40,357 nucleotides of DNA from a virus. Taxonomy: Duplodnaviria; Heunggongvirae; Uroviricota; Caudoviricetes. Under the pieces are notes generated by a model. The model was given only the letters and a program-made list of their open reading frames with translations. It made no database searches and had not been told where the DNA came from. Position 1 is the first letter of the stretch; the number at the start of each line of letters is the position of its first letter. Where the stretch lies: IMG/VR virus record IMGVR_UViG_2740892106_000010. One strand, 5' to 3'. This document shows positions 1 through 34,586 of the stretch, piece by piece. The translations under genes and the position numbers were made by a program.

Positions 1-1251
1 GTGCTTACCGATACAAAATTAAAAAACCTCAAGCCGCAGGACAAACTGTACAAGGTCTCCGATCGTGACGGGCTGTATGTAGCTGTGCTTACGTCAGGCA
101 CGGTCTCGTTTCGCTATGACTACCGTATCAACGGTCGCCGCGAAACACTGGTAATCGGGCAGTATGGGCGTGACGGTATCAGCCTGGCAGAAGCGCGAGA
201 AGAACTGATTGCTGCAAAGAAGCTGCTTAAAGCAGGCCAGTCACCGGCTGCGGCTAAACGTGACGGTATCAAAAAGATTCGTGGTGCCGAGACGTTTGCG
301 GTACATACCGACAGTTATATGAAACATGTCATCCTGGCTGACAGTACCCGCGCAATGAAGCAGGTGGTGATCGACCGTGACATACTTCCGGTTCTTGGCA
401 ACAAAATGATGACTGAAATTACCACATCGATGGTTCGTGATTTGTGTGACCGGATTGTCGAACGCGGCGGCCGGGCAACAGCAGTGCAGGCCAGGGAGAT
501 CATCAGCAGCGTATACCGTCATGCCAATGACCGTGGTCATGGTTTGTTTAATCCTGCGGCTGACATTAAACCTTCGTCTATCGCCATATTTAAACCACGA
601 GAGCGAACACTGACACCAGAAGAAATTGGTCTGTTCTTCCGCACGCTGGATGCCATTGGTGCTATGGGCACTATGAAAATGGCTTTAAAGCTGGTGCTTA
701 TCACTATGGTTCGTAAAGGCGAATTCACCAATGCAACGTGGGATGAAATAGATTTTAAAAAATGGACATGGACAATTCCTTCAGACCGCATGAAGGGAAG
801 CCGGGCGCACGTTATTTACCTGCCTAAACAGGCACAGGATATATTGGTTGGGTTGCAGATGTGCGCTGGTGGAAGTGAATATCTGGTTCCTGGTCGTTAC
901 AATTTCCGGAAGCCATTATCTAATGCCGCGCTGAACTCTCTGATCGACAGAACGGTGAAAATAATAAATGAAGATGGTGAGCATATTCAGGGCTTCACCG
1001 TACACGATATGCGCCGTACAGCCAGTACGTTGTTGCATGAGGCTGGTTATCCTTCAGACTGGATTGAAAAGGCTCTGGCACATGAGCAGAAAGGTGTGCG
1101 CGCCGTATATAACAAAGCGGAATACGCCAGACAGCGCGCCTACATGTTGCAGCAGTGGGCCGATATGATTGATTCCTGGATTAACGGGGAGCATACGGAT
1201 CTGATTCCGTTCTCCCCGTCGAAGTTTGAGAAGTGGATGGCGGGGGAATAA
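1..1251 (+). CDS. int: Tyrosine recombinase (phage integrase); 5-prime end may be clipped by the window edge
   Basis: 416-aa ORF beginning with GTG at position 1; C-terminal catalytic region with HDMRRT and VRAVYNKAEY motifs typical of the R-H-R-Y tyrosine recombinase fold; N-terminal arm-binding-like region. Confidence 0.88.
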   Translation: MLTDTKLKNLKPQDKLYKVSDRDGLYVAVLTSGTVSFRYDYRINGRRETLVIGQYGRDGISLAEAREELIAAKKLLKAGQSPAAAKRDGIKKIRGAETFAVHTDSYMKHVILADSTRAMKQVVIDRDILPVLGNKMMTEITTSMVRDLCDRIVERGGRATAVQAREIISSVYRHANDRGHGLFNPAADIKPSSIAIFKPRERTLTPEEIGLFFRTLDAIGAMGTMKMALKLVLITMVRKGEFTNATWDEIDFKKWTWTIPSDRMKGSRAHVIYLPKQAQDILVGLQMCAGGSEYLVPGRYNFRKPLSNAALNSLIDRTVKIINEDGEHIQGFTVHDMRRTASTLLHEAGYPSDWIEKALAHEQKGVRAVYNKAEYARQRAYMLQQWADMIDSWINGEHTDLIPFSPSKFEKWMAGE

Positions 1252-1254
1252 CGT

Positions 1255-1449
1255 TTAATAGTTCTGCTGATTTTCTTCCATCTCTGCTTCTGCTGCCAGT
1301 GATTCAATTTTGTTTTCGAATATTGCTGACAGTGTTGCAAATTCAGCATCAGTGACAGCGGGAATTGGAACAAACCTGATCCCGCTGTGTGCAAGCATGT
1401 TTGCAGTTTCAAGGCATTTTCTTAAATCTGCTGGTGATGCCATGTTCAT
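1255..1449 (-). CDS. Small acidic hypothetical protein (64 aa)
   Basis: Internal ATG of track ORF 1255..1569; its ATG overlaps the stop of the upstream methyltransferase gene (ATGA overlap), suggesting translational coupling. Confidence 0.4.
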   Translation of the reverse strand: MNMASPADLRKCLETANMLAHSGIRFVPIPAVTDAEFATLSAIFENKIESLAAEAEMEENQQNY

Positions 1450-2096
1450 GCAGCACGCTCCCGCCCCTGGTTGTCTGTTGGTGACAGCGGAGAATTGCTG
1501 AATGCATTTGTTAATCCGCCAATATCCAACGCGTATCCAGGGTGTAGTTGCACTGCCGAGTCTTCGCACTGATTACCCCAAACATCGAAGCCATGAGACG
1601 ACTGGCGGGCGAACAGTTCAATGCGAGAAACATCGCCTAACAATTGCACAAGTTTTTCACGAACGACATCTGGTTTTCTTGAGTGCTCAAGCCGCGGTGC
1701 GGTAAATGACTGAACGATCCCTGCATTAATGCGCGGAGGTAGTTTTCCCTTTACCGCAAACAGGCAATCTTCACTATTGGCGCGAGTCATGTGTCCCATA
1801 CCCATAACCAGTTTATCTGGTTGTCGACTACCACATTTTATCCACGTGAAGCCCTTCATGGTCATAAGACGAAATCCCCAGGCTTCAACAACTTTTAGTG
1901 CTTCGAGTGGTTGTGTTGGCACCCACCACATGGCCAACAGACAGTTTTCAGCGGCCAAATCCCACACAGGAAGGCGGCAGATATCCAGCACACTCATAAC
2001 TGGATATTTAAAACCGGCACCGCGATTACCATCTGCGGCTTTGTCCCGGTATACCCATGGTGGATCTGCATAGATTAGCGTGTATTTCTTAGTCAT
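1446..2096 (-). CDS. MT-A70 family DNA N6-adenine methyltransferase
   Basis: 216-aa ORF with the DPPW catalytic motif (LIYADPPWVY) near the N-terminus, as in phage Dam-like methylases. Confidence 0.85.
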   Translation of the reverse strand: MTKKYTLIYADPPWVYRDKAADGNRGAGFKYPVMSVLDICRLPVWDLAAENCLLAMWWVPTQPLEALKVVEAWGFRLMTMKGFTWIKCGSRQPDKLVMGMGHMTRANSEDCLFAVKGKLPPRINAGIVQSFTAPRLEHSRKPDVVREKLVQLLGDVSRIELFARQSSHGFDVWGNQCEDSAVQLHPGYALDIGGLTNAFSNSPLSPTDNQGRERAA

Positions 2097-2388
2097 AAAC
2101 CACCCCGCAACATCCTATACCGCTATAGTCTCCACGGCGAAGGCCGTTACCTTTTGTGATACATTGGTCCCTGCGAACCGCGATCCTTGCACGCTCAACA
2201 TCACCAGAAGCAACATCCATACACTGAAGCCAAAGGTGGGCGGCAATGCGGAACTGCCCTTTTTTCTCTCTTTCAATCGCGCGTTTTTCGAACTCTATCG
2301 CCGCAGGAGTAACGGCGATAACCTTTGAAGGACGGCGCATTGAAACCTTGTTCATGTGATATTTTTCAAGTCGGCTTAACTTTCTCAC
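2089..2388 (-). CDS. Hypothetical protein
   Basis: 99-aa ORF with a GAGAGGG Shine-Dalgarno before a GTG start; an in-frame ATG at 2355 is an alternative start. Confidence 0.4.
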   Translation of the reverse strand: MRKLSRLEKYHMNKVSMRRPSKVIAVTPAAIEFEKRAIEREKKGQFRIAAHLWLQCMDVASGDVERARIAVRRDQCITKGNGLRRGDYSGIGCCGVVYD

Positions 2389-2497
2389 TTAATCCAACCC
2401 TCTCTGAAAATTAATGCCAGCAGATAAAGCCATGCTGAAACAGAGGCCAGGAATAAGTACCATCCTGACCATTTGCTCCAGTGCCTTAGCAGCGCAC

Positions 2498-2746
2498 TCA
2501 TGCAGCGTTGCTCACAGGACGATATACACGTTGCTGAACAGGAGGCTTTTTACCCTGGAACTCTGCCGGGCTTGCTGCCTGACGTTCATCAAGCCAACGC
2601 TCAACTTCGTCACGGTTCCATGCGCAGCGTTTGTCAGTGATATACCAGCGTTTAGGAAATTCCCCTGCGCGCTCCATACGGTCGATAGTGCTCCATGACA
2701 GTGGCACCACCGCCAGGAGTTCCTTCTTACCTAATGCACCTTTCAT
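2498..2746 (-). CDS. AlpA/Xis-like small HTH DNA-binding protein (excisionase or transcriptional regulator family)
   Basis: 82-aa ORF with GAGG RBS; sequence LSWSTIDRMERAGEFPKRWYI...WNRDEVERWLDER resembles the AlpA/excisionase winged-helix family. Confidence 0.65.
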   Translation of the reverse strand: MKGALGKKELLAVVPLSWSTIDRMERAGEFPKRWYITDKRCAWNRDEVERWLDERQAASPAEFQGKKPPVQQRVYRPVSNAA

Positions 2747-2795
2747 AAATACCTCTCTTGGTTGCAGTGCGGCGCGCGTGGCGCCGCGGTGGTGG

Positions 2796-3737
2796 TTACA
2801 TAGATGTTTCGTTTAATTCTTCCCGACGAACGCTGTAAACGTCGGTGGCTTTTGCCAGCAGTTCGTCATCATCTGAAAGTTTCTGTTCAATGTATTTGTA
2901 AGCCTTATCCAGTTCGGAGACAGTGCTGTAATTCATCGCTGCGCTGGTAAAGGCCATCAGCATTTCTTCTGGATCACGGCTATCCGCTTTACGCGTTTGC
3001 TCATCAGGCTTTTTCACTGGTTTAGCGTTGATCAGACTGTTCATTCCCGCAGCAGTGGTCGTTTGCGGAGTAATGTCTCGCTCAACGCGCGGTGCCGTTT
3101 CCTGTAATTCGTCAGGGGTGTAGACGCCCATGATTACGTCAGGACAGTGCAAGCGAGACCAGCGTTTTGTCGCAAGGTATGCGAGTTGTTGTTTCGGATC
3201 ACTGGCCCAAAGTGTGGAGTTTCTTACCTGTGCTTGAGACAGCATTAACTCAAGCACTCGAGGTTGATCCTCGCCCTTCATGGTTGCCCATACGCGAACA
3301 CCGCAGCCTTCTTCGTCTTTTAGAGTCCAGCCTGGTGCGATATATGGATTGCCGTTTTTGGATGTTTTCTCAACAAACTTACCGATCACGCGTTCCCACG
3401 GCCCGAACCACTCGTAGTTGATGCGATCTTTTGTTGGCGACATCGTTGAGATAACTGCGTTTACTAATTGGGCTTCATAACCTAGCGTGCCGTTCACAAC
3501 ATGGGTTTTCTGAGCCACGGCAAACGGGTTCATTCCCCACTGCGCAGCCTGCATTGCCACGGCCATGCAATCAGCTGGTTTCCCGGCGAGGTGCGCCGGT
3601 ACCGTTACGCGGCTTTGCGCCATTACCTCGGCGAATTTCATCAGTTGGTTCAAGCCGTCTGGGCTGAAAATAGTTGCAGCAGTTCCAGCGATTGCTGTGT
3701 CTACTGGTGCGTTGATGTTTGCGATGTCGTTGCTCAT
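2796..3737 (-). CDS. Single-strand annealing recombinase (RecT/Bet-like)
   Basis: ATG at 3737 overlaps the stop of the upstream exonuclease gene (ATGA); size and position immediately downstream of a RecE-type exonuclease match a phage recombination module; family assignment is from memory of similar proteins, not a search. Confidence 0.6.
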   Translation of the reverse strand: MSNDIANINAPVDTAIAGTAATIFSPDGLNQLMKFAEVMAQSRVTVPAHLAGKPADCMAVAMQAAQWGMNPFAVAQKTHVVNGTLGYEAQLVNAVISTMSPTKDRINYEWFGPWERVIGKFVEKTSKNGNPYIAPGWTLKDEEGCGVRVWATMKGEDQPRVLELMLSQAQVRNSTLWASDPKQQLAYLATKRWSRLHCPDVIMGVYTPDELQETAPRVERDITPQTTTAAGMNSLINAKPVKKPDEQTRKADSRDPEEMLMAFTSAAMNYSTVSELDKAYKYIEQKLSDDDELLAKATDVYSVRREELNETSM

Positions 3738-4555
3738 ATGTACATATCCTGTTTGCGTGCCCACTCAGGGCGTTTAATGATTTCCACACCGCCCCATTCA
3801 TCATTGATGCGGCATTCGTGATAGGTATTCAGATCCCGGCGGAACAGAGCGTGCCCGGCATCGACATCCTGCGCATCCAGCTCGAACACGCGTACCGGAT
3901 ACCGACCACAATCAATGCTTTCGCTCACGGCAAGAAAGAAAAAACCATGCGGCTGACCAGTAACCCTCATTGCGCCTTCGCGGTACATTGCGTCCTGCAC
4001 GTGGTAGCGGAATTCCTCGATGTGGCGTGCAAAACGGTCCATATCTGCAACCTTTTTCACGTCGACGATCACGTTGTGCTCGTTCAGCCATTTGTCTGGA
4101 CGAATTCGGCACAACTCCCCCGTCTCTTCATCGTTCCAGTACATTGATGCTTCGCAGTAACCAGGTGCTTCCAACATCCAGCGTGCCGCCGGGTGAGCCA
4201 TTGCGCTATCACGCATCAGCTCCAGTTTCCGCCACTGCTCTGCATCAAGTACCGAAATCCCCATATCCGCAATATCACGAAGAAATGCCTCTTCGTCAGC
4301 TTTACCTTGTTTCGTCCGACGTTCGAATTTCGGTGAAACAATGAAGCGTTTGTCGAACTCTCCAGGCTCCAGAAGCAGACAGTGCAATGCGGTTCCCATA
4401 TCCAGTGCAGACTTTTTCTCTTCGTCTTCTGGTGCTGCCTGAACCCATTTAAGAAGCGCCGGATTCTTGGCAACCATGTCCAGTTGCGACTTACTCACGC
4501 CGTCACCGGCGTGGTAGTCTTCGTTGCTGATGTCGAAATAAATTCCCGGTTTCAT
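3734..4555 (-). CDS. PD-(D/E)XK recombination exonuclease (RecE C-terminal domain / YqaJ-like)
   Basis: 273-aa ORF with AGAGGGA RBS; N-terminal FDISNEDYHAG...SKSQL motif and IVDVKK motif typical of phage PD-(D/E)XK exonucleases. Confidence 0.7.
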   Translation of the reverse strand: MKPGIYFDISNEDYHAGDGVSKSQLDMVAKNPALLKWVQAAPEDEEKKSALDMGTALHCLLLEPGEFDKRFIVSPKFERRTKQGKADEEAFLRDIADMGISVLDAEQWRKLELMRDSAMAHPAARWMLEAPGYCEASMYWNDEETGELCRIRPDKWLNEHNVIVDVKKVADMDRFARHIEEFRYHVQDAMYREGAMRVTGQPHGFFFLAVSESIDCGRYPVRVFELDAQDVDAGHALFRRDLNTYHECRINDEWGGVEIIKRPEWARKQDMYI

Positions 4556-4851
4556 GCCGCGTCCCTCTGCCCATCAAGCTGATCAGCCAGATCCCAGCGG
4601 GCGATAATTGCCATTGCCTCTCGCCGGTAGGAATCCATCAGTTCTTCGAACTCTGGACTGTCTTTAGCGGCCTCCAGTACTTCCTGGCGAACGCCTTTAC
4701 CTGTTACAGCGTCGAAAGTTGAGGCCAGTTGATGAAGCCGGATGCTCTCGATCAGTTCAACTTGTCGGTCATATAGCTGTTCTGACAGGCGGTAGTCCTT
4801 GTCGAATGCCAGCATGATTTTTTGAAGATTTTTCTGCTGATTAACGTTCAT
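4552..4851 (-). CDS. Hypothetical early protein
   Basis: Track ORF 4552..4866 trimmed to the ATG at 4851, which has a strong GGGAGGG RBS; stop overlaps the start of the exonuclease gene. Confidence 0.5.
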   Translation of the reverse strand: MNVNQQKNLQKIMLAFDKDYRLSEQLYDRQVELIESIRLHQLASTFDAVTGKGVRQEVLEAAKDSPEFEELMDSYRREAMAIIARWDLADQLDGQRDAA

Positions 4852-4853
4852 TA

Positions 4854-5006
4854 TCAGCCCTCCCATATCTCGTTATCGTTGGCCACATCGCGAGCTTCTT
4901 TGCTGACGAAAGCCCACTTAATGCCTTCCTGTAAGGTGCGGAACTTCCAGCTCATGAATCCGCATGCAGTAACGCAGTACCAACCGTTGATGATTTTCCA
5001 CTGCAT
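4854..5006 (-). CDS. Small hypothetical protein (50 aa), first ORF of the leftward early operon
   Basis: ORF below the track length cut-off; GAGGT-like RBS upstream of ATG at 5006; lies directly downstream of the leftward early promoter. Confidence 0.3.
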   Translation of the reverse strand: MQWKIINGWYCVTACGFMSWKFRTLQEGIKWAFVSKEARDVANDNEIWEG

Positions 5007-5025
5007 AACTTGTTACCTCGGTCTG

Positions 5026-5102
5026 TTACCGTTGAGGTAATAATTATGCGTATTTGGTTTGATGTCAATAGATATGAGTTAAAAAAATTACCCATTAGGT
5101 AA
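5026..5102. promoter_or_regulatory. Leftward early promoter bracketed by two TTACC-N5-GGTAA palindromes
   Basis: Perfect palindromes at 5026..5040 and 5088..5102; on the minus strand a consensus -35 TTGACA (plus coordinates 5063..5068) and a TAATTA/AATTAT -10 about 17 bp downstream, with the -10 abutting the 5026 palindrome. Confidence 0.55.
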
Positions 5103-5114
5103 TAGTATAGGCAA

Positions 5115-5138
5115 TAAAAAAGCCGCCAGAAGGCGGCT
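5115..5138 (-). terminator. Rho-independent terminator after the repressor gene
   Basis: GC-rich hairpin AGCCGCC-agaa-GGCGGCT followed on the minus strand by a T-run, just downstream of the stop at 5160. Confidence 0.6.
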
Positions 5139-5159
5139 TACTTACTGAAAAATATGATT

Positions 5160-5744
5160 TTATTGTTTGTTTTTTTCGTTCTGGTTGATGACAAATTCAA
5201 TGTAACTTTCGATCTTTGCTTTCTCGGTTTCGGGTAACAATGCGTAGCGCGAGCGGTCATAGTTGATGGTCGCAGGGTCGTGCGGGTGAATCAGTAATTC
5301 ATAGCCGTGACGCCCGAATGCTGATGCAACATTCTCCAGGGTGGAAATGGAAACACTGACCTCATTGTTTAACAGGCGGCTGATTGTCACCTGGGCGACG
5401 CCGGATGCGCGGTGAAGTTTTCCCTGAGTTGAAAGGTCGCGGCTTTCGCTCATCCAGCGTTCCAGGTTGTGAGCCGCCAGCTGACCAATGTCGCTTGGGC
5501 CGACAGGCTGAAAACCTTCCTGAGAAAGCGAGCGATCGATATCAAGCCAGTTACGTGGTTTATTGGCGGCAGCTTCAATTTTTCGCGCAACCTGGTCGCC
5601 GATAACCTTCTTGCCAAGAGCCCAGCGGTTTACCAGATTTGCCTGAGTTCCAAGTTTTTCTGCCATCCGCGTCTGAACACCATTGAATTCACGGTCGATC
5701 AAGTCGTTGAGATTTTGCCTGCGGACGTCCTGGATACTTTTCAT
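5160..5744 (-). CDS. Prophage repressor candidate with two helix-turn-helix (XRE-type) domains and no peptidase S24 domain
   Basis: 194-aa ORF; two HTH-like segments (QTRMAEKLGTQANLVNRWALGKK and VAQVTISRLLNNEVSVSISTLENVA); divergent from a cro-like gene with operator-like palindromes between them; no Ala-Gly/Ser-Lys autocleavage module evident. Confidence 0.7.
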   Translation of the reverse strand: MKSIQDVRRQNLNDLIDREFNGVQTRMAEKLGTQANLVNRWALGKKVIGDQVARKIEAAANKPRNWLDIDRSLSQEGFQPVGPSDIGQLAAHNLERWMSESRDLSTQGKLHRASGVAQVTISRLLNNEVSVSISTLENVASAFGRHGYELLIHPHDPATINYDRSRYALLPETEKAKIESYIEFVINQNEKNKQ

Positions 5745-5799
5745 TTTCTGGAAAATCGCCTCATATATGAATCAGTAGATGATTCAATTTAAAGCAATA

Positions 5800-5862
5800 T
5801 TACCCAACAGGTAAATGCACCTCATGGGTAACTATCCTTGATTTTTGTTACCTTATGGGTGA
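5800..5862. promoter_or_regulatory. Immunity-region operators between the divergent repressor and cro-like genes
   Basis: Three adjacent sites: TTACCcaacaGGTAA (5800..5814, perfect), GCACCtcatgGGTAA (about 5817..5831, degenerate left half) and TTACCttatgGGTGA (5848..5862, one mismatch); a TTGATT -35-like hexamer lies between them. Confidence 0.6.
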
Positions 5863-5898
5863 ATATTTATTATCTGAAATAAATATCAGGCAATAGCT

Positions 5899-6129
5899 AT
5901 GAGCGATAACGGACATTTCGATTTCAAAAAGCACTGGCTTGCACTTACTCCGGATGAGCGTGAAGCCTTCGCACAGGAAGCCGGAACGACGAGTCACTAT
6001 ATCCAGACTCACTTAACAGGTAAGCGCAAAATGCCAGGTAAAGTATTGATGAATGGGCTTTTTAAAGCCTGTAAAACAAGACAATGGCTGCGCTCAAAAG
6101 CAGAACTGGCATACTTCTTCTACTCATGA
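5899..6129 (+). CDS. Cro-like small HTH regulator
   Basis: 76-aa ORF divergent from the repressor; HTH-like segment AQEAGTTSHYIQTHLTGKR; followed by an intrinsic terminator. Confidence 0.55.
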   Translation: MSDNGHFDFKKHWLALTPDEREAFAQEAGTTSHYIQTHLTGKRKMPGKVLMNGLFKACKTRQWLRSKAELAYFFYS

Positions 6130-31060: not shown

Positions 31061-31621
31061 ATGAAGGCAATTATATTTTTTGTTTCAATATTGATGTCTG
31101 CATTTTCTTTTGCAGGGCAAAATGTTAAATGCGAACTTCAATACTTTGGAGATAGCGATAAATTTAAGGTAACTCAGTTTTCTTTTATGGGGATTCCATC
31201 TGATTCATACCTTTATACCTGTGCCGACTGTGGAGGCATCCAGATAAACGTGTTCCCATCTATTCAGACTGTTGCTTCCTACTCATTTGAAAACAACATT
31301 GATTTCGAAAGGAAAATCAATGCTGAATACAACAGAAAAGACATAGCTAAACTTGAGATGGAAAACGTTACTCAAGGCGGGAGAATAAAATATTCAATCA
31401 CCGATACTGGTTTGGCAGAGTTTTACCCAGAGGGCAAAAAGATAAGCTACCTCTACTTTTTAGCCAAGCAACAAAATGGTAAAGAACAAGTAGGTTATTC
31501 AGGATTTGTTACCTCTAACGGGGATAAGTCATGCTCAATTATTGCGACATATCCAGGAAAAGAAATTTCTTTTCTGGGAAGTAAATCTTTAAGCTACTTT
31601 ATGAATCATATATCAATGTAG
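31061..31621 (+). CDS. Secreted protein of unknown function (AT-rich moron)
   Basis: 186-aa ORF with N-terminal signal peptide (MKAIIFFVSILMSAFSFAGQ); markedly lower GC than flanking virion genes; followed by a strong terminator. Confidence 0.6.
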   Translation: MKAIIFFVSILMSAFSFAGQNVKCELQYFGDSDKFKVTQFSFMGIPSDSYLYTCADCGGIQINVFPSIQTVASYSFENNIDFERKINAEYNRKDIAKLEMENVTQGGRIKYSITDTGLAEFYPEGKKISYLYFLAKQQNGKEQVGYSGFVTSNGDKSCSIIATYPGKEISFLGSKSLSYFMNHISM

Positions 31622-31819: not shown

Positions 31820-31911
31820 TGTGAAATTTCCATCTATAAGCCACCTCAATGTGGCGTCAATGAGTGTAGCACTGACTTTTGTTTCGTCCACAAAAAAGCC
31901 CGCGCTGCGGG

Positions 31912-32457
31912 CTATTCCTTCCATTTATCAGAAAAAAGATCTTCTTCTAAAGGCATTGGTTCTGTTTTTGTTTTCTCAAAGAATTGATAACTGATAGTGA
32001 TTGCTGCCTCTTTAAACTCTTCTTGCTCAGTTATGTTGTGGGCATCTGCGTCAACAAAAAACATAACCAGCGCATCACGATTGTGATTTACCGAATAAAC
32101 TAAAAAGCAATCACTTGTTGGTATGCATTTTACTTGCACAGACGCTATATTTTTCCATGCATCCCAAGATGATTTTTTACCAGTGTGTTTTTTATCACTA
32201 TATTCTGGAATATAGTCTTGGTTATCGACATGAGTATGCCTGACATTTAGTTTAAGCATTTCTGTCGGACGAGCAAATGCAGCATCTTTACCAAGAGATG
32301 GATGGTATCCCGTTTTCCAATACTGGGTAAAGGCATCAGATACTTTCTTCAGCTCAAGATCAGATGCACAAAGGGCCGAGAAATTTTGCGTATGCAATAC
32401 TCGACCCTTATATCTGACAATTTGATTTTTATCATTCTGCGACGCAGACGAACTCAT
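31912..32457 (-). CDS. Hypothetical protein (AT-rich moron, 181 aa)
   Basis: ATG at 32457 with AAGGA RBS (track start 32484 is TTG); AT-rich; no recognisable motif. Confidence 0.5.
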   Translation of the reverse strand: MSSSASQNDKNQIVRYKGRVLHTQNFSALCASDLELKKVSDAFTQYWKTGYHPSLGKDAAFARPTEMLKLNVRHTHVDNQDYIPEYSDKKHTGKKSSWDAWKNIASVQVKCIPTSDCFLVYSVNHNRDALVMFFVDADAHNITEQEEFKEAAITISYQFFEKTKTEPMPLEEDLFSDKWKE

Positions 32458-32758: not shown

Positions 32759-33493
32759 TCAGAAGAACCCTGCCTTGTCGTTGATGTACTCCGCGTGCGT
32801 CTGGATATCACGCAGGCATTTGCTCACACCAACGATGTAGCAGAACATGGTGGTCAGCTCCGCCGCCGCGCCCGATACGTCGTGCCCGTCGTCCTGTAAC
32901 TGGTTCAGCAGATTCATCAGCAGTGAGTTCTCCGTCAGGCCGAGAACACCAGACGGAGAATGAATCAGACTGCGGTAGCCGGGCTTCAGTGGGGCACTGT
33001 ATTCTTTTTTGTCTTCCAGCTTGATCGCCTCCATAATGGCGGGCATGAATTTTTCAATTACCTGAGTGGCCTTTGATAAATCAGCTCCACCTGAGAGACG
33101 AACATCTCCGCTGACATTTGCGGGTTTTCTGTCGAAGTAGCAATCTTCCAGTTTTTCGAAGACCTCCCACGCTTTTTCAGTCTCAAGAATTTTCGCATGT
33201 CGTGCTGCACCGCGAGCGGTCCATAAGAAAAGATGACTTACTTTTGGTGCAATATTAAGCAAACCTCTTTGAGAGGACTCGTTCTTAAATGCTCGTAATT
33301 CTTCGCCTATCAGCTTGAAACAATGTTTTCCCTCAATGAATCGATCTGCATTTCGTTGATAGTTTTGACGAATCAGTTTGGGTTCTGTGTCATACAAATC
33401 AGCAAGCATTTCTGTAGTCATTACAGGGATGTTGCAATGAGTTGTTATCGGCAACTTATCAATAGCTATATTACGCATTTTCATTGCCTCCAT
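32759..33493 (-). CDS. Antirepressor-like protein (ORF6N/Rha-type N-terminal domain plus C-terminal domain)
   Basis: 244-aa ORF; N-terminal region (IPVMTTEMLADLYDTEPKLIRQNYQRNADRFIEGKHCFKL) resembles ORF6N/Rha antirepressor domains; C-terminal about 70 aa is paralogous to the small protein encoded at 34292..34549. Confidence 0.65.
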   Translation of the reverse strand: MEAMKMRNIAIDKLPITTHCNIPVMTTEMLADLYDTEPKLIRQNYQRNADRFIEGKHCFKLIGEELRAFKNESSQRGLLNIAPKVSHLFLWTARGAARHAKILETEKAWEVFEKLEDCYFDRKPANVSGDVRLSGGADLSKATQVIEKFMPAIMEAIKLEDKKEYSAPLKPGYRSLIHSPSGVLGLTENSLLMNLLNQLQDDGHDVSGAAAELTTMFCYIVGVSKCLRDIQTHAEYINDKAGFF

Positions 33494-33977
33494 CTTTCAC
33501 GACGAAATAGCAATTATCTTTATAATCTAACTGGATGAACTTTATGTTTTCAGGGAGTTTTACAGAAAGAGTTTTTGCACAAGCAAAACCAAAATCTGCG
33601 CCAGAAGCATCCATATACCTTAATAATTGTTTTAATGCTGAAGGAGAAAAAGTATCTACCTTCACCTCAACAGGGTAACCATCTTTTGTTTTTAGGTCTG
33701 GTTGACCTGGTCCACCAAGTATTTCAGCGTTAAGGTATTTTGCTATTTCTGGATAAGCGTTGTATTCAGAGCGTAGTTTTGCCTTGTTATCGACTGCTAG
33801 TTGCATAAGATGATCAAACAAATTGGTATCTAAATCTGCCCCTTCATCCCACATTCTATTTCTACAGCTAATCAATTCACTGACCAGTGGTGCACTTTCT
33901 TGCCTTAGCATAAGAAGGAGTGGAGAATTAGAAATTAACCAATACAGATCGTCGTTTGAGATTTTTTGGCCTGGCAT
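33471..33977 (-). CDS. Hypothetical protein with PD-(D/E)XK-like motif
   Basis: 168-aa AT-rich ORF with GAGG RBS; D-x(n)-EVK motif (DGYPVEVKVD); overlaps the start of the Ant-like gene. Confidence 0.45.
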   Translation of the reverse strand: MPGQKISNDDLYWLISNSPLLLMLRQESAPLVSELISCRNRMWDEGADLDTNLFDHLMQLAVDNKAKLRSEYNAYPEIAKYLNAEILGGPGQPDLKTKDGYPVEVKVDTFSPSALKQLLRYMDASGADFGFACAKTLSVKLPENIKFIQLDYKDNCYFVVKDGGNENA

Positions 33978-34132
33978 AGCGATACCTCTACTAGTAAGTT
34001 ACCCACCACCGCAACGCCAATTGCTGGTGGTGAACTGGACAAGGTTGGCGTACCGGCCTAGTAGGTACCGGCGCACCTTTCGGTGCCCCTGCCCAGCCCA
34101 CCATAATTCGGATATGACTGTGCTATACGCAT

Positions 34133-34154
34133 AAAAAAACCACGTCTGGCGTGG
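34133..34154 (-). terminator. Rho-independent terminator (minus strand)
   Basis: Hairpin CCACG-ccaga-CGTGG followed on the minus strand by TTTTTTT. Confidence 0.55.
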
Positions 34155-34245
34155 TATGCGCCTACTAGTAATCCGGGACGCCAATCCCGGCACTGGATTT
34201 TGCCAGTGCCCGATTACTATGGCACAAGAGGAGTGCGATGTAAAT

Positions 34246-34291: not shown

Positions 34292-34549
34292 TTATCTGGT
34301 TTGTTTTCGTAATTGTTCGGCACAATAGTCGAGATGTGTTTGCAGATCCTGCATAGACATCTGTGAGCTGGTGACGTAGTTAATCAGTGCAGTCAGTTCG
34401 GCAAGTGGGCCATCGACATTAAATCCATCCTTATCGAGATCCCGGAGTAATTTCATCAAGTGCGATCCCTCCACCAGTGACCTGACGCCTCCCGGCGTGT
34501 GAATCCTTTCGGTAAATCCGTCTTCCAGTGGATAGTGATACTGCTGCAT
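34292..34549 (-). CDS. SOS-regulated small protein (85 aa), paralog of the Ant-like C-terminal domain; antirepressor candidate
   Basis: ATG at 34549 with GGAG RBS (track start 34567 is TTG); near-consensus LexA box 22 bp upstream; alignable by eye to residues about 170-240 of the protein encoded at 32759..33493. Confidence 0.55.
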   Translation of the reverse strand: MQQYHYPLEDGFTERIHTPGGVRSLVEGSHLMKLLRDLDKDGFNVDGPLAELTALINYVTSSQMSMQDLQTHLDYCAEQLRKQTR

Positions 34550-34570
34550 CTTATCTTCTCCATGCAATAA

Positions 34571-34586
34571 CTGTATAAATATACAG
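34571..34586. promoter_or_regulatory. LexA (SOS) box
   Basis: aaCTGTATAAATATACAGta matches the CTGT-N8-ACAG consensus with an AT-rich spacer (one spacer deviation from TACTGTATATATATACAGTA). Confidence 0.8.

Follow-up and report, generated by a model that had tools for sequence, protein, structure and literature searches.

The IMG/VR virus record IMGVR_UViG_2740892106_000010 (Caudoviricetes), analysed here over its whole length of 40,357 nucleotides (nt) and referred to as the window, represents a phiV10/epsilon15-like (Uetakevirus) Escherichia coli prophage. The sequences flanking the locus considered here are 91–96% identical to phiV10, phiv142-3 and related phages. On the minus strand, at 33977..33471, lies an ATG-started open reading frame (ORF) of 168 codons, ORF168, which RefSeq and the Prokaryotic Genome Annotation Pipeline (PGAP) name a hypothetical protein (WP_001119419.1). 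It overlaps the start of a second minus-strand gene (32759..33478), here called Ant2, which combines an ORF6N N-terminal domain with a C-terminal copy of a small antirepressor (Ant) domain. Upstream of both stand an SOS-type operator, a small ant gene and two regulatory RNAs. A sequence-only reading of the window had drawn attention to the pair, proposing that the 168-aa protein at 33471–33977 is nuclease-like and that its gene is translationally linked to an ORF6N-type Ant-like gene; the ORF reading and the PGAP annotation bear out the protein itself, and the fate of the other proposals is described below.

ORF168, a PD-(D/E)XK protein encoded ahead of Ant2

ORF168 divides into a helical N-terminal domain (residues ~1–82), a PD-(D/E)XK nuclease core (~83–163) and a disordered tail, GGNENA. 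An alignment of 25 sequences, reaching down to 27% identity, contains the conserved signature E71 ... P93-D94 ... E104-V-K106 ... Q117-x-x-x-Y121, with invariant residues that include E71, Y75, D94, P102, E104, K106, Q117, R120, Y121 and G130 and with P93 nearly invariant (kept in at least 90% of the sequences). In 112 more distant relatives the equivalents of D94, K106, Q117 and Y121 likewise never vary, and the ExK glutamate almost never does. The sequence-only reading had based its nuclease proposal on the string DGYPVEVKVD, which is present at residues 99–108, but the acid that it chose, D99, varies among homologues (D/E/G/N) and is rejected as a catalytic residue; the conserved acid is D94. 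A bare D-x(n)-ExK string is, by itself, of little information.

Structure prediction and profile comparison support the proposed fold. Given the 25-sequence alignment, which includes distant full-length homologues, AlphaFold2 (AF2) modelled ORF168 with a predicted local distance difference test (pLDDT) score of 91.6, compared with only 47.7 when a shallow alignment of nine close sequences was used. The model joins a helical N-terminal part to an alpha-beta-beta-beta-alpha-beta core, and ORF168 presents both the core fold that defines PD-(D/E)XK proteins and the (P)D ... (D/E)xK signature on strands 2 and 3. Its profile matches Cas4 (4r5q) at an E value of 0.0023 with the D, ExK and QxxxY positions aligned, such that Q117-L-L-R-Y121 falls on QLQIY of 4r5q, the QhxxY motif after the ExK strand. 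Relatives of ORF168 match NucS_C, PDDEXK_3 and HSDR_N_2 with scores that lie under or close to the thresholds at best, NucS_C being matched by 14 of the 112 distant relatives (best E 4.4e-6), while Foldseek comparison of the model with PDB and BFVD recovers, weakly, the same fold class. The Cas4 match, the NucS_C matches, the AF2 model and the Foldseek fold class together support assignment to the RecB/Cas4 type of PD-(D/E)XK nucleases, whose motif set we take to be the E, PD, ExK and QxxxY combination found in ORF168.

ORF168 is also distinct from these relatives. It shares the core fold and the E, (P)D, ExK and QxxxY motifs with RecB/Cas4 and NucS C-terminal nuclease domains, but it has neither a helicase or single-stranded-DNA-binding partner domain nor the Fe–S cysteine cluster: instead of the four cysteines of the Cas4 type it carries C38, C133 and C155, none of them invariant in the 25-sequence alignment. 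The helical N-terminal domain matches nothing, the only PHROG matches of the protein are the unknown-function families 18738 and 25037, and a phmmer search of PDB with the single ORF168 sequence returned only noise, bromodomains for example. The ratio of non-synonymous to synonymous substitution rates (dN/dS) relative to a Salmonella homologue is 0.12, and together with the conservation, the profile matches and the fold search this identifies ORF168 as a real, constrained gene. We describe its product as a putative small PD-(D/E)XK nuclease with a private helical N-terminal domain, in which the fold and the motifs are conserved and from which we infer catalysis.

The downstream gene is ORF6N-type and Ant-like, as the sequence-only reading had it, with a Pfam match to ORF6N (1e-18) and a match to the PHROG family phrog_1760, anti-repressor. 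Residues 158–231 of Ant2 are 42% identical (E 7e-16) to orf85, the small Ant encoded at 34292–34549. Because its C-terminal 75 residues (32759–33030) are paralogous to this small Ant, Ant2 is a fusion of an ORF6N domain with a second Ant-domain copy. PGAP and the gene calls of all close homologues start Ant2 at the ATG at 33478, giving 239 aa and an overlap with ORF168 of 8 nt (ATGCGTAA). That the two genes overlap had been correctly seen, but the 23 nt given for the overlap apply only to the longest ORF6N frame, from the ATG at 33493, and are replaced here by 8 nt; as a whole, the earlier observation is partly confirmed. Inside the last ORF168 codons a GGAGG Shine–Dalgarno (SD) sequence of the ORF6N gene can be read (33487..33491, minus strand), 8 nt before the ATG and the same in the homologous loci L007 and L014. 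The GGNENA tail of ORF168 is conserved and yet disordered in the model (pLDDT < 50); its conservation is probably at the RNA level, since the nucleotides that specify this tail double as the GGAGG and the ATG of the ORF6N gene.

SOS and antisense-RNA elements upstream of ORF168

In front of the operon stands a LexA (SOS) box, CTGTATAAATATACAG (34571..34586), an exact CTGT-N8-ACAG palindrome. The window has three such palindromes where 0.66 would be expected, and of the three only this one is AT-rich. It precedes orf85 (ant; 34292..34549, minus strand), whose 85-aa product matches phrog_450 and is an orthologue of SPC32H Ant, with 88% identity to the gene annotated 'ant: anti-repressor protein' in the Salmonella phages SPC32H and SPC32N. 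In its passage citing Kim and Ryu (2013), a review (PMC7380047) gives SPC32H ant as a LexA-controlled antirepressor. The box and orf85 (34292–34586) are probably the primary SOS-induction switch of the prophage.

A consensus scan places a promoter-like site, TTTACA-17-CATAGT with a TG, at 34216..34244 on the minus strand, ending ~7 nt before the match to the small RNA IsrK and positioned to start it. The IsrK/c4-a1b1 element (34133..34222, minus strand) was recognized with Rfam: IsrK (RF01394) at 34209..34133 scores 68.1 bits against a gathering threshold of 50, and the c4-a1b1 motif at 34222..34170 scores 45.1 bits, just under its threshold of 46.7. Motif matches inside IsrK locate b1 (TTGGCGT, 34184–34178) and a1 (ACTAGTAG, 34169–34162), and a terminator scan locates the intrinsic terminator at 34155–34139, followed by a U run. 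The locus thus has the Gifsy-1-type combination of an IsrK RNA and a rho-independent terminator upstream of overlapping ORFs.

The C4 antisense RNA (RF01695; 34023..34108, minus strand) follows, matched over its full length (1–87) with 76.7 bits against a gathering threshold of 45. In its predicted fold the hairpin loop CCUACUAGG corresponds to element a' (CCTACTAGG, 34065–34057), and element b' (ACGCCAA, 34051–34045), which is also a motif match, is single-stranded. Exact complements of both lie on the messenger RNA (mRNA) at 33985..34020: b2 (TTGGCGT) at 34020–34014 and a2 (ACTAGTAG) at 33995–33988, the latter running into the AGAGG SD of ORF168 (33989–33985), 7 nt before its ATG. Within the window CTAGTAG occurs only at a1, a' and a2. 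The arrangement is that of a P1-type immI region, with C4 in the leader, duplicate targets of which the downstream pair lies on the ribosome-binding site (RBS) of the first cistron, and a leader ORF overlapping the ant start. By analogy, C4 would control translation of ORF168 and, through ORF168, expression of ant.

The pairing elements are maintained as sets. The a1/a'/a2 and b1/b'/b2 elements co-vary in eight loci with six specificities (the window, L006/7/9, L014, L016, L012, phiv142-3 and phiV10), and wherever a locus has C4, its own a' is matched by its own a2 on the RBS of the nuclease gene. Across related phages the C4 elements vary together with both of their target pairs (33985–34222 of the window and L001, L002, L006, L007, L009, L014 and L016), with six a-specificities; judged from these sequences, the differing a/b sets look like a set of heteroimmune immI types.

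Comparison with known antirepressor systems and distribution of the nuclease–Ant pair

The layout as such is known. The P1 record gives the order a1 b1 c4 a2 b2 icd ant1, with icd and ant1 overlapping by 4 nt, and its annotation states that a2/b2 mediate 'repression of icd ant translation' and that icd is 'apparently required for expression of ant'. The window shares with the P1/P7 immI region (c4–icd–ant1/ant2) the order of elements, an antisense target on the leader-ORF RBS and the overlapping ant. It differs in its leader, a 168-aa PD-(D/E)XK protein rather than the unrelated 73-aa Icd; in its Ant, which joins ORF6N to an SPC32H-Ant domain and is not P1 Ant; in its upstream control, a LexA box with a small ant gene in place of the C1 operator; and in the IsrK-type terminator between a1/b1 and C4. 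Homology of ORF168 to Icd was rejected (BLASTP E 17; hhalign probability 0.1%).

The isrK–orf45–anrP module of Gifsy-1 works through read-through of the IsrK terminator, and translation of orf45 is needed for translation of anrP (Hershko-Shalev et al. 2016, PMC4825925). Both an IsrK with a terminator and an ORF ahead of the antirepressor gene recur in the window, where translational coupling, experimentally established in Gifsy-1, would be expected to operate; the orf45 peptide, however, has 45 aa and is not conserved, whereas ORF168 is a conserved enzyme-like protein. Because P1 and Gifsy-1 share the order of antisense RNA, leader ORF and overlapping ant, ORF168 occupies the slot of icd and orf45. 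With SPC32H, the window shares an ant gene under a LexA box; SPC32H differs in that its ant stands by itself, IsrK, C4, the nuclease and a second Ant all being absent. The sequence-only reading had held that a nuclease-like protein expressed with an antirepressor-family protein is not a standard induction module: the layout is in fact the canonical P1 immI/Gifsy-1 isrK design, and what is unusual is a nuclease in the leader slot.

Alignment with phiV10 and phiv142-3 shows the LexA box, ant, IsrK and C4 to be conserved. In both phages no leader ORF intervenes between the a2/SD site and the Ant gene, which is of the Bro-N type. Where these phages encode the Bro-N-type N terminus of Ant, the window instead carries ORF168 together with the ORF6N domain as a single cassette, homology resuming in the Ant C-terminal domain; the GC content of the inserted block is 37.7% and 41.6%, against 48–56% in the flanks. 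The exact region was found in 22 of 5,426 complete E. coli genomes, and the cassette is present in 22 of the 456 E. coli genomes with the flanking sequence.

The close ORF168 family comprises 11 clusters among 5.8 billion proteins, with all named members from Enterobacteriaceae. An exhaustive profile search recovered 307 relatives, of which ~20 are full length and the others share only residues ~90–155. The family is absent from the sequenced isolates among 50,697 phage records, in which tblastn with ORF168, P0012 and P0031 gave no match. Profile searches of genome contigs yielded no member in a first scan and one Pseudomonas locus in a second, and a metagenome scan returned only four identical copies.

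Co-occurrence of the two genes across prophages, which the sequence-only reading had offered as a check on their association, was observed: in 9 of the 14 distinct lineages whose context was read, a nuclease homologue overlaps the antirepressor-family gene that follows it (ORF6N or P22_AR_N), and the pairing spans both C4-type and P22 Arc/Mnt-type operons. Homologues with 71–80% identity to ORF168 (L006, L007 and L009) and one with 51% (L014) lie downstream of IsrK and C4 and overlap an ORF6N gene by 8 nt. A homologue with 44% identity (L016) lies behind C4 and overlaps a P22_AR_N ant by 4 nt. The same 4-nt overlap with a P22_AR_N ant, followed by KilA-N, is seen in L013 (44%), behind an Arc-like gene and a divergent HTH_3 repressor, and in L033 from Pseudomonas antarctica, behind Arc-like and divergent Mnt-like genes and a sar-like antisense RNA. 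L020, a relative that shares only the core, has a cI/cro-like region upstream and overlaps an ORF6N+ORF6C gene by 4 nt. Over the Ant-overlapping full-length pairs, identity to ORF168 ranges from 34% to 80%. Two further loci have no Ant gene downstream: L012 (34%) has a C4-like RNA (Rfam sRNA-Xcc1) upstream and a Rha gene two genes upstream, and L015 has no Ant neighbour and no upstream control that was found.

L013 (3287–6440) and L033 (2073–5154) are P22-type immI operons in which the nuclease homologue sits between arc and ant. They resemble the mnt/arc/sar/ant region of P22 in their Arc-like gene and P22_AR_N ant, which here flank the homologue; L033 has in addition the Mnt-like divergent gene and a weak sar-like RNA, and L013 an HTH_3-type repressor as its divergent gene. 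To our knowledge, P22 itself has no gene between arc and ant. The sar-like RNA over the nuclease RBS of L033 scores below threshold (26.8 bits, gathering 43), and its UUCUCC faces the nuclease SD.

Fusions provide a second form of association. The nuclease core is fused to an N-terminal Bro-N domain in 3 of the 112 distant relatives and to Rha in another 3, and ~10 of the 112 match antirepressor PHROGs. Bro-N, KilA-N, Rha and ORF6N proteins are reportedly modular phage regulators in which N-terminal DNA-binding domains are combined with varied C-terminal domains, as Iyer, Koonin and Aravind are said to have described in 2002. The 6 relatives that join an Ant-type N-terminal domain to a PD-(D/E)XK core are of this kind, but in the window the nuclease has an upstream cistron of its own and is not fused as a C-terminal domain.

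Some further observations concern the loci compared and the surroundings of the pair. In L012, sRNA-Xcc1 (70.7 bits) lies in a stretch (3790–4003) with the layout seen for C4, namely b1/a1, a terminator, the RNA, and b2/a2 on the SD, an indication that sRNA-Xcc1 belongs to the phage immunity RNAs of the C4 type. L027, from E. coli MS 196-1 (672–5900), is one prophage with two convergent immI-type modules, the first composed of ant, C4 and a BRO-N Ant and the second of IsrK, C4, ORF168 and ORF6N followed by DUF2335 and YafO-type genes; a spurious PGAP 'Rha family' pseudogene covers the C4 RNA there. In the window a YafO-family toxin-like gene lies at 31912..32457 on the minus strand (Pfam YafO_toxin 1.1e-05, 25.9 bits against a cut-off of 25; also the PGAP product name; GC 37.5%). 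It is possibly co-transcribed with the ORF168 unit, its membership being uncertain. In other strains a 108-aa ORF overlaps the start of the YafO-type gene, and no intact partner gene is evident in the window. A strong intrinsic terminator-like hairpin at 31897..31913 on the minus strand, with a 7-bp stem containing 6 GC pairs and followed by TTTTTT, is a candidate end of the transcription unit. Beyond it, on the plus strand, a 186-aa ORF at 31061–31621 with a signal-peptide-like N terminus (MKAIIFFVSILMSAFSFAG) follows the 850-aa virion protein; phiV10 has a 46-aa membrane protein at this position.

A proposed role at the exit from lysogeny

The interpretation that we favour, with a confidence slightly better than even, is that ORF168 is a RecB/Cas4-motif PD-(D/E)XK nuclease, that it is translated first in a riboregulated, immI-like antirepressor operon of the P1/Gifsy-1 type, and that it serves as a DNA-cutting effector together with the Ant-type protein. 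In the lysogen, LexA would hold the upstream ant promoter and C4, produced from the same leader, would pair through its loop a' and single-stranded b' with b2/a2 and cover the ORF168 SD, such that neither ORF168 nor the overlapping Ant2 would be translated. By analogy with P1, the untranslated leader may also be prone to Rho termination; Biere et al. are said to have found in 1992 that the untranslated P1 leader undergoes Rho-dependent termination. Upon DNA damage, with cleavage of LexA, or upon fresh infection, transcription would rise, the IsrK/a1b1 copies would compete for C4, ribosomes would load on ORF168, and those terminating 8 nt inside Ant2 would hand translation over to it. The nuclease and the Ant-type protein would then be made together, and only while immunity is lifted, with the nuclease acting alongside the Ant-type N-terminal DNA-binding domain as a DNA-cutting effector at the lysogeny-to-lysis transition; host, resident-prophage and the phage's own DNA are candidate targets. 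We postulate this partnership because the family stays directly upstream of different Ant N-terminal domains and because its core is found fused to Bro-N and Rha. The fusion architectures are compatible with a further idea of the sequence-only reading, that the protein could be a DNA-recognition partner for the Ant-like protein.

Several observations weigh against this interpretation. ORF168 itself matches no Pfam, NCBIfam or PADLOC model, its Pfam and NCBIfam scans reaching no curated PD-(D/E)XK family threshold, and all of its Foldseek matches are weaker than E 1e-3. A structure in the mRNA that would hide the Ant2 start was rejected, with no significant sequestering fold around it (z -0.77); coupling of ORF168 and Ant2 is therefore argued from the overlap of the genes. 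The nuclease is dispensable for the basic switch, because phiV10 and phiv142-3 run the same C4 module without a leader ORF. L012 and L015 are full-length homologues with no Ant gene behind them, and, apart from L020, the core-only relatives whose context was read (3 of 4) adjoin a helicase, a DNA methyltransferase or nothing recognizable. Finally, the fusions speak for an affinity between domain types rather than for a complex of ORF168 with Ant2, because in them the Ant-type domain takes the place of the ORF168 N-terminal domain.

An alternative that we regard as unlikely treats the pair as a competition or defence module, in which the ORF6N or P22_AR_N protein would recognize foreign or resident-prophage DNA for the nuclease to cut, making it an exclusion weapon fired on infection or induction and not a part of the switch. 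KilA-N and Bro-N-type proteins can be defence proteins, a subject to which a preprint on BstA relates, and the cassette is patchily distributed among flank-carrying E. coli genomes and sits in a low-GC accessory region, between a virion gene and the tailspike, that also carries the YafO-type toxin gene. PADLOC-DB 2.0, however, gives no match for ORF168, with two or three relatives touching Cas4 models at E 3e-4 or weaker, and control by C4, LexA or Arc/Mnt predicts silence in the lysogen, the opposite of most prophage defence genes. The defence or anti-defence pair that the sequence-only reading had considered is thus left without direct support, and its interpretation as a whole is partly supported.

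It is quite improbable, in our judgement, that ORF168 is a selfish free-standing homing endonuclease that inserted behind the C4 gene and borrowed its RBS, the exchanged ORF6N domain being a co-conversion tract. The low GC content of the cassette (37.7% against 49.5%), its sharp mosaic junctions, one at the a2/SD site and the other within the linker between the Ant domains, and its presence in few of the genomes with the flanks are all what such an element might leave behind. The DNA-binding and nuclease domain architecture of the Bro-N and Rha fusions also recalls homing enzymes, although as a lead only. Yet the position 5' of ant, with its start–stop overlap, is kept from 80% down to 34% identity and recurs in both C4-type and Arc/Mnt-type operons, whose insertion sites have no sequence in common; a2 and the local C4 have evolved together in each case; and the dN/dS of 0.12 indicates long-term selection on the protein.

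We give the same low standing to a host-directed analogue of Icd, by which the nuclease would nick or cut the host chromosome, sustain RecA activation and LexA cleavage, block division through the SOS response and so commit the cell to induction. ORF168 does occupy the slot of P1 icd, which encodes a cell-division inhibitor, and the LexA box before the operon makes positive feedback structurally possible; the account is nevertheless pure inference, leaves the conserved pairing and the fusions with Ant N-terminal domains unexplained, and concerns a protein unrelated to Icd. Least probable of all is that only translation of ORF168 matters, its product being a catalytically irrelevant or degenerate-fold scaffold akin to the poorly conserved Gifsy-1 orf45: phiV10-type phages indeed need no leader ORF, but a mere spacer would not keep catalytic-type residues invariant or nearly so across more than 130 sequences, nor fit the dN/dS of 0.12.

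While the regulatory layout (P1 immI, Gifsy-1 isrK, P22 immI and SPC32H LexA–Ant) and the fold superfamily of ORF168 are already known, a literature search by accession and related terms found no description of a conserved PD-(D/E)XK family as the first cistron of an antisense-controlled antirepressor operon, nor of a recurrent pairing or fusion of a nuclease with Ant-type N-terminal domains. The occurrence of the pair in distantly related phages suggests that the switch out of dormancy has a component not yet described. Antirepressor modules time the induction of many enterobacterial prophages, including carriers of toxins and of O-antigen conversion, and their non-Ant cargo, such as Icd in P1 and orf45 in Gifsy-1, is poorly understood. 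If our favoured interpretation is true, a conserved and apparently active nuclease, controlled at the most stringent point, its antisense-covered RBS, and always translated along with an Ant-type protein, would introduce an enzymatic step into a switch hitherto explained by protein sequestration only. Should ORF168 instead be a passive passenger or a homing element, the locus would still be a clean natural case of cassette exchange in a riboregulated operon with co-evolving C4 specificities.

A broader proposal, which we put forward tentatively and consider doubtful as it stands, is that the ORF168 family supplies the catalytic half of a widespread and so far unrecognized 'antirepressor-associated nuclease' system, in which Ant-type N-terminal domains (ORF6N, P22_AR_N, Bro-N and Rha) direct a nuclease to specific DNA when immunity is lifted, whether on infection or on SOS induction. 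Were it true, many 'antirepressors' would be nuclease-targeting factors in phage–phage or phage–host conflict or in the commitment to lysis, and not only binders of repressors. It would offer a concrete hypothesis for the enigmatic ORF6N, Bro-N, Rha and P22_AR_N domains, which carry the annotation 'antirepressor' in thousands of phage genomes.

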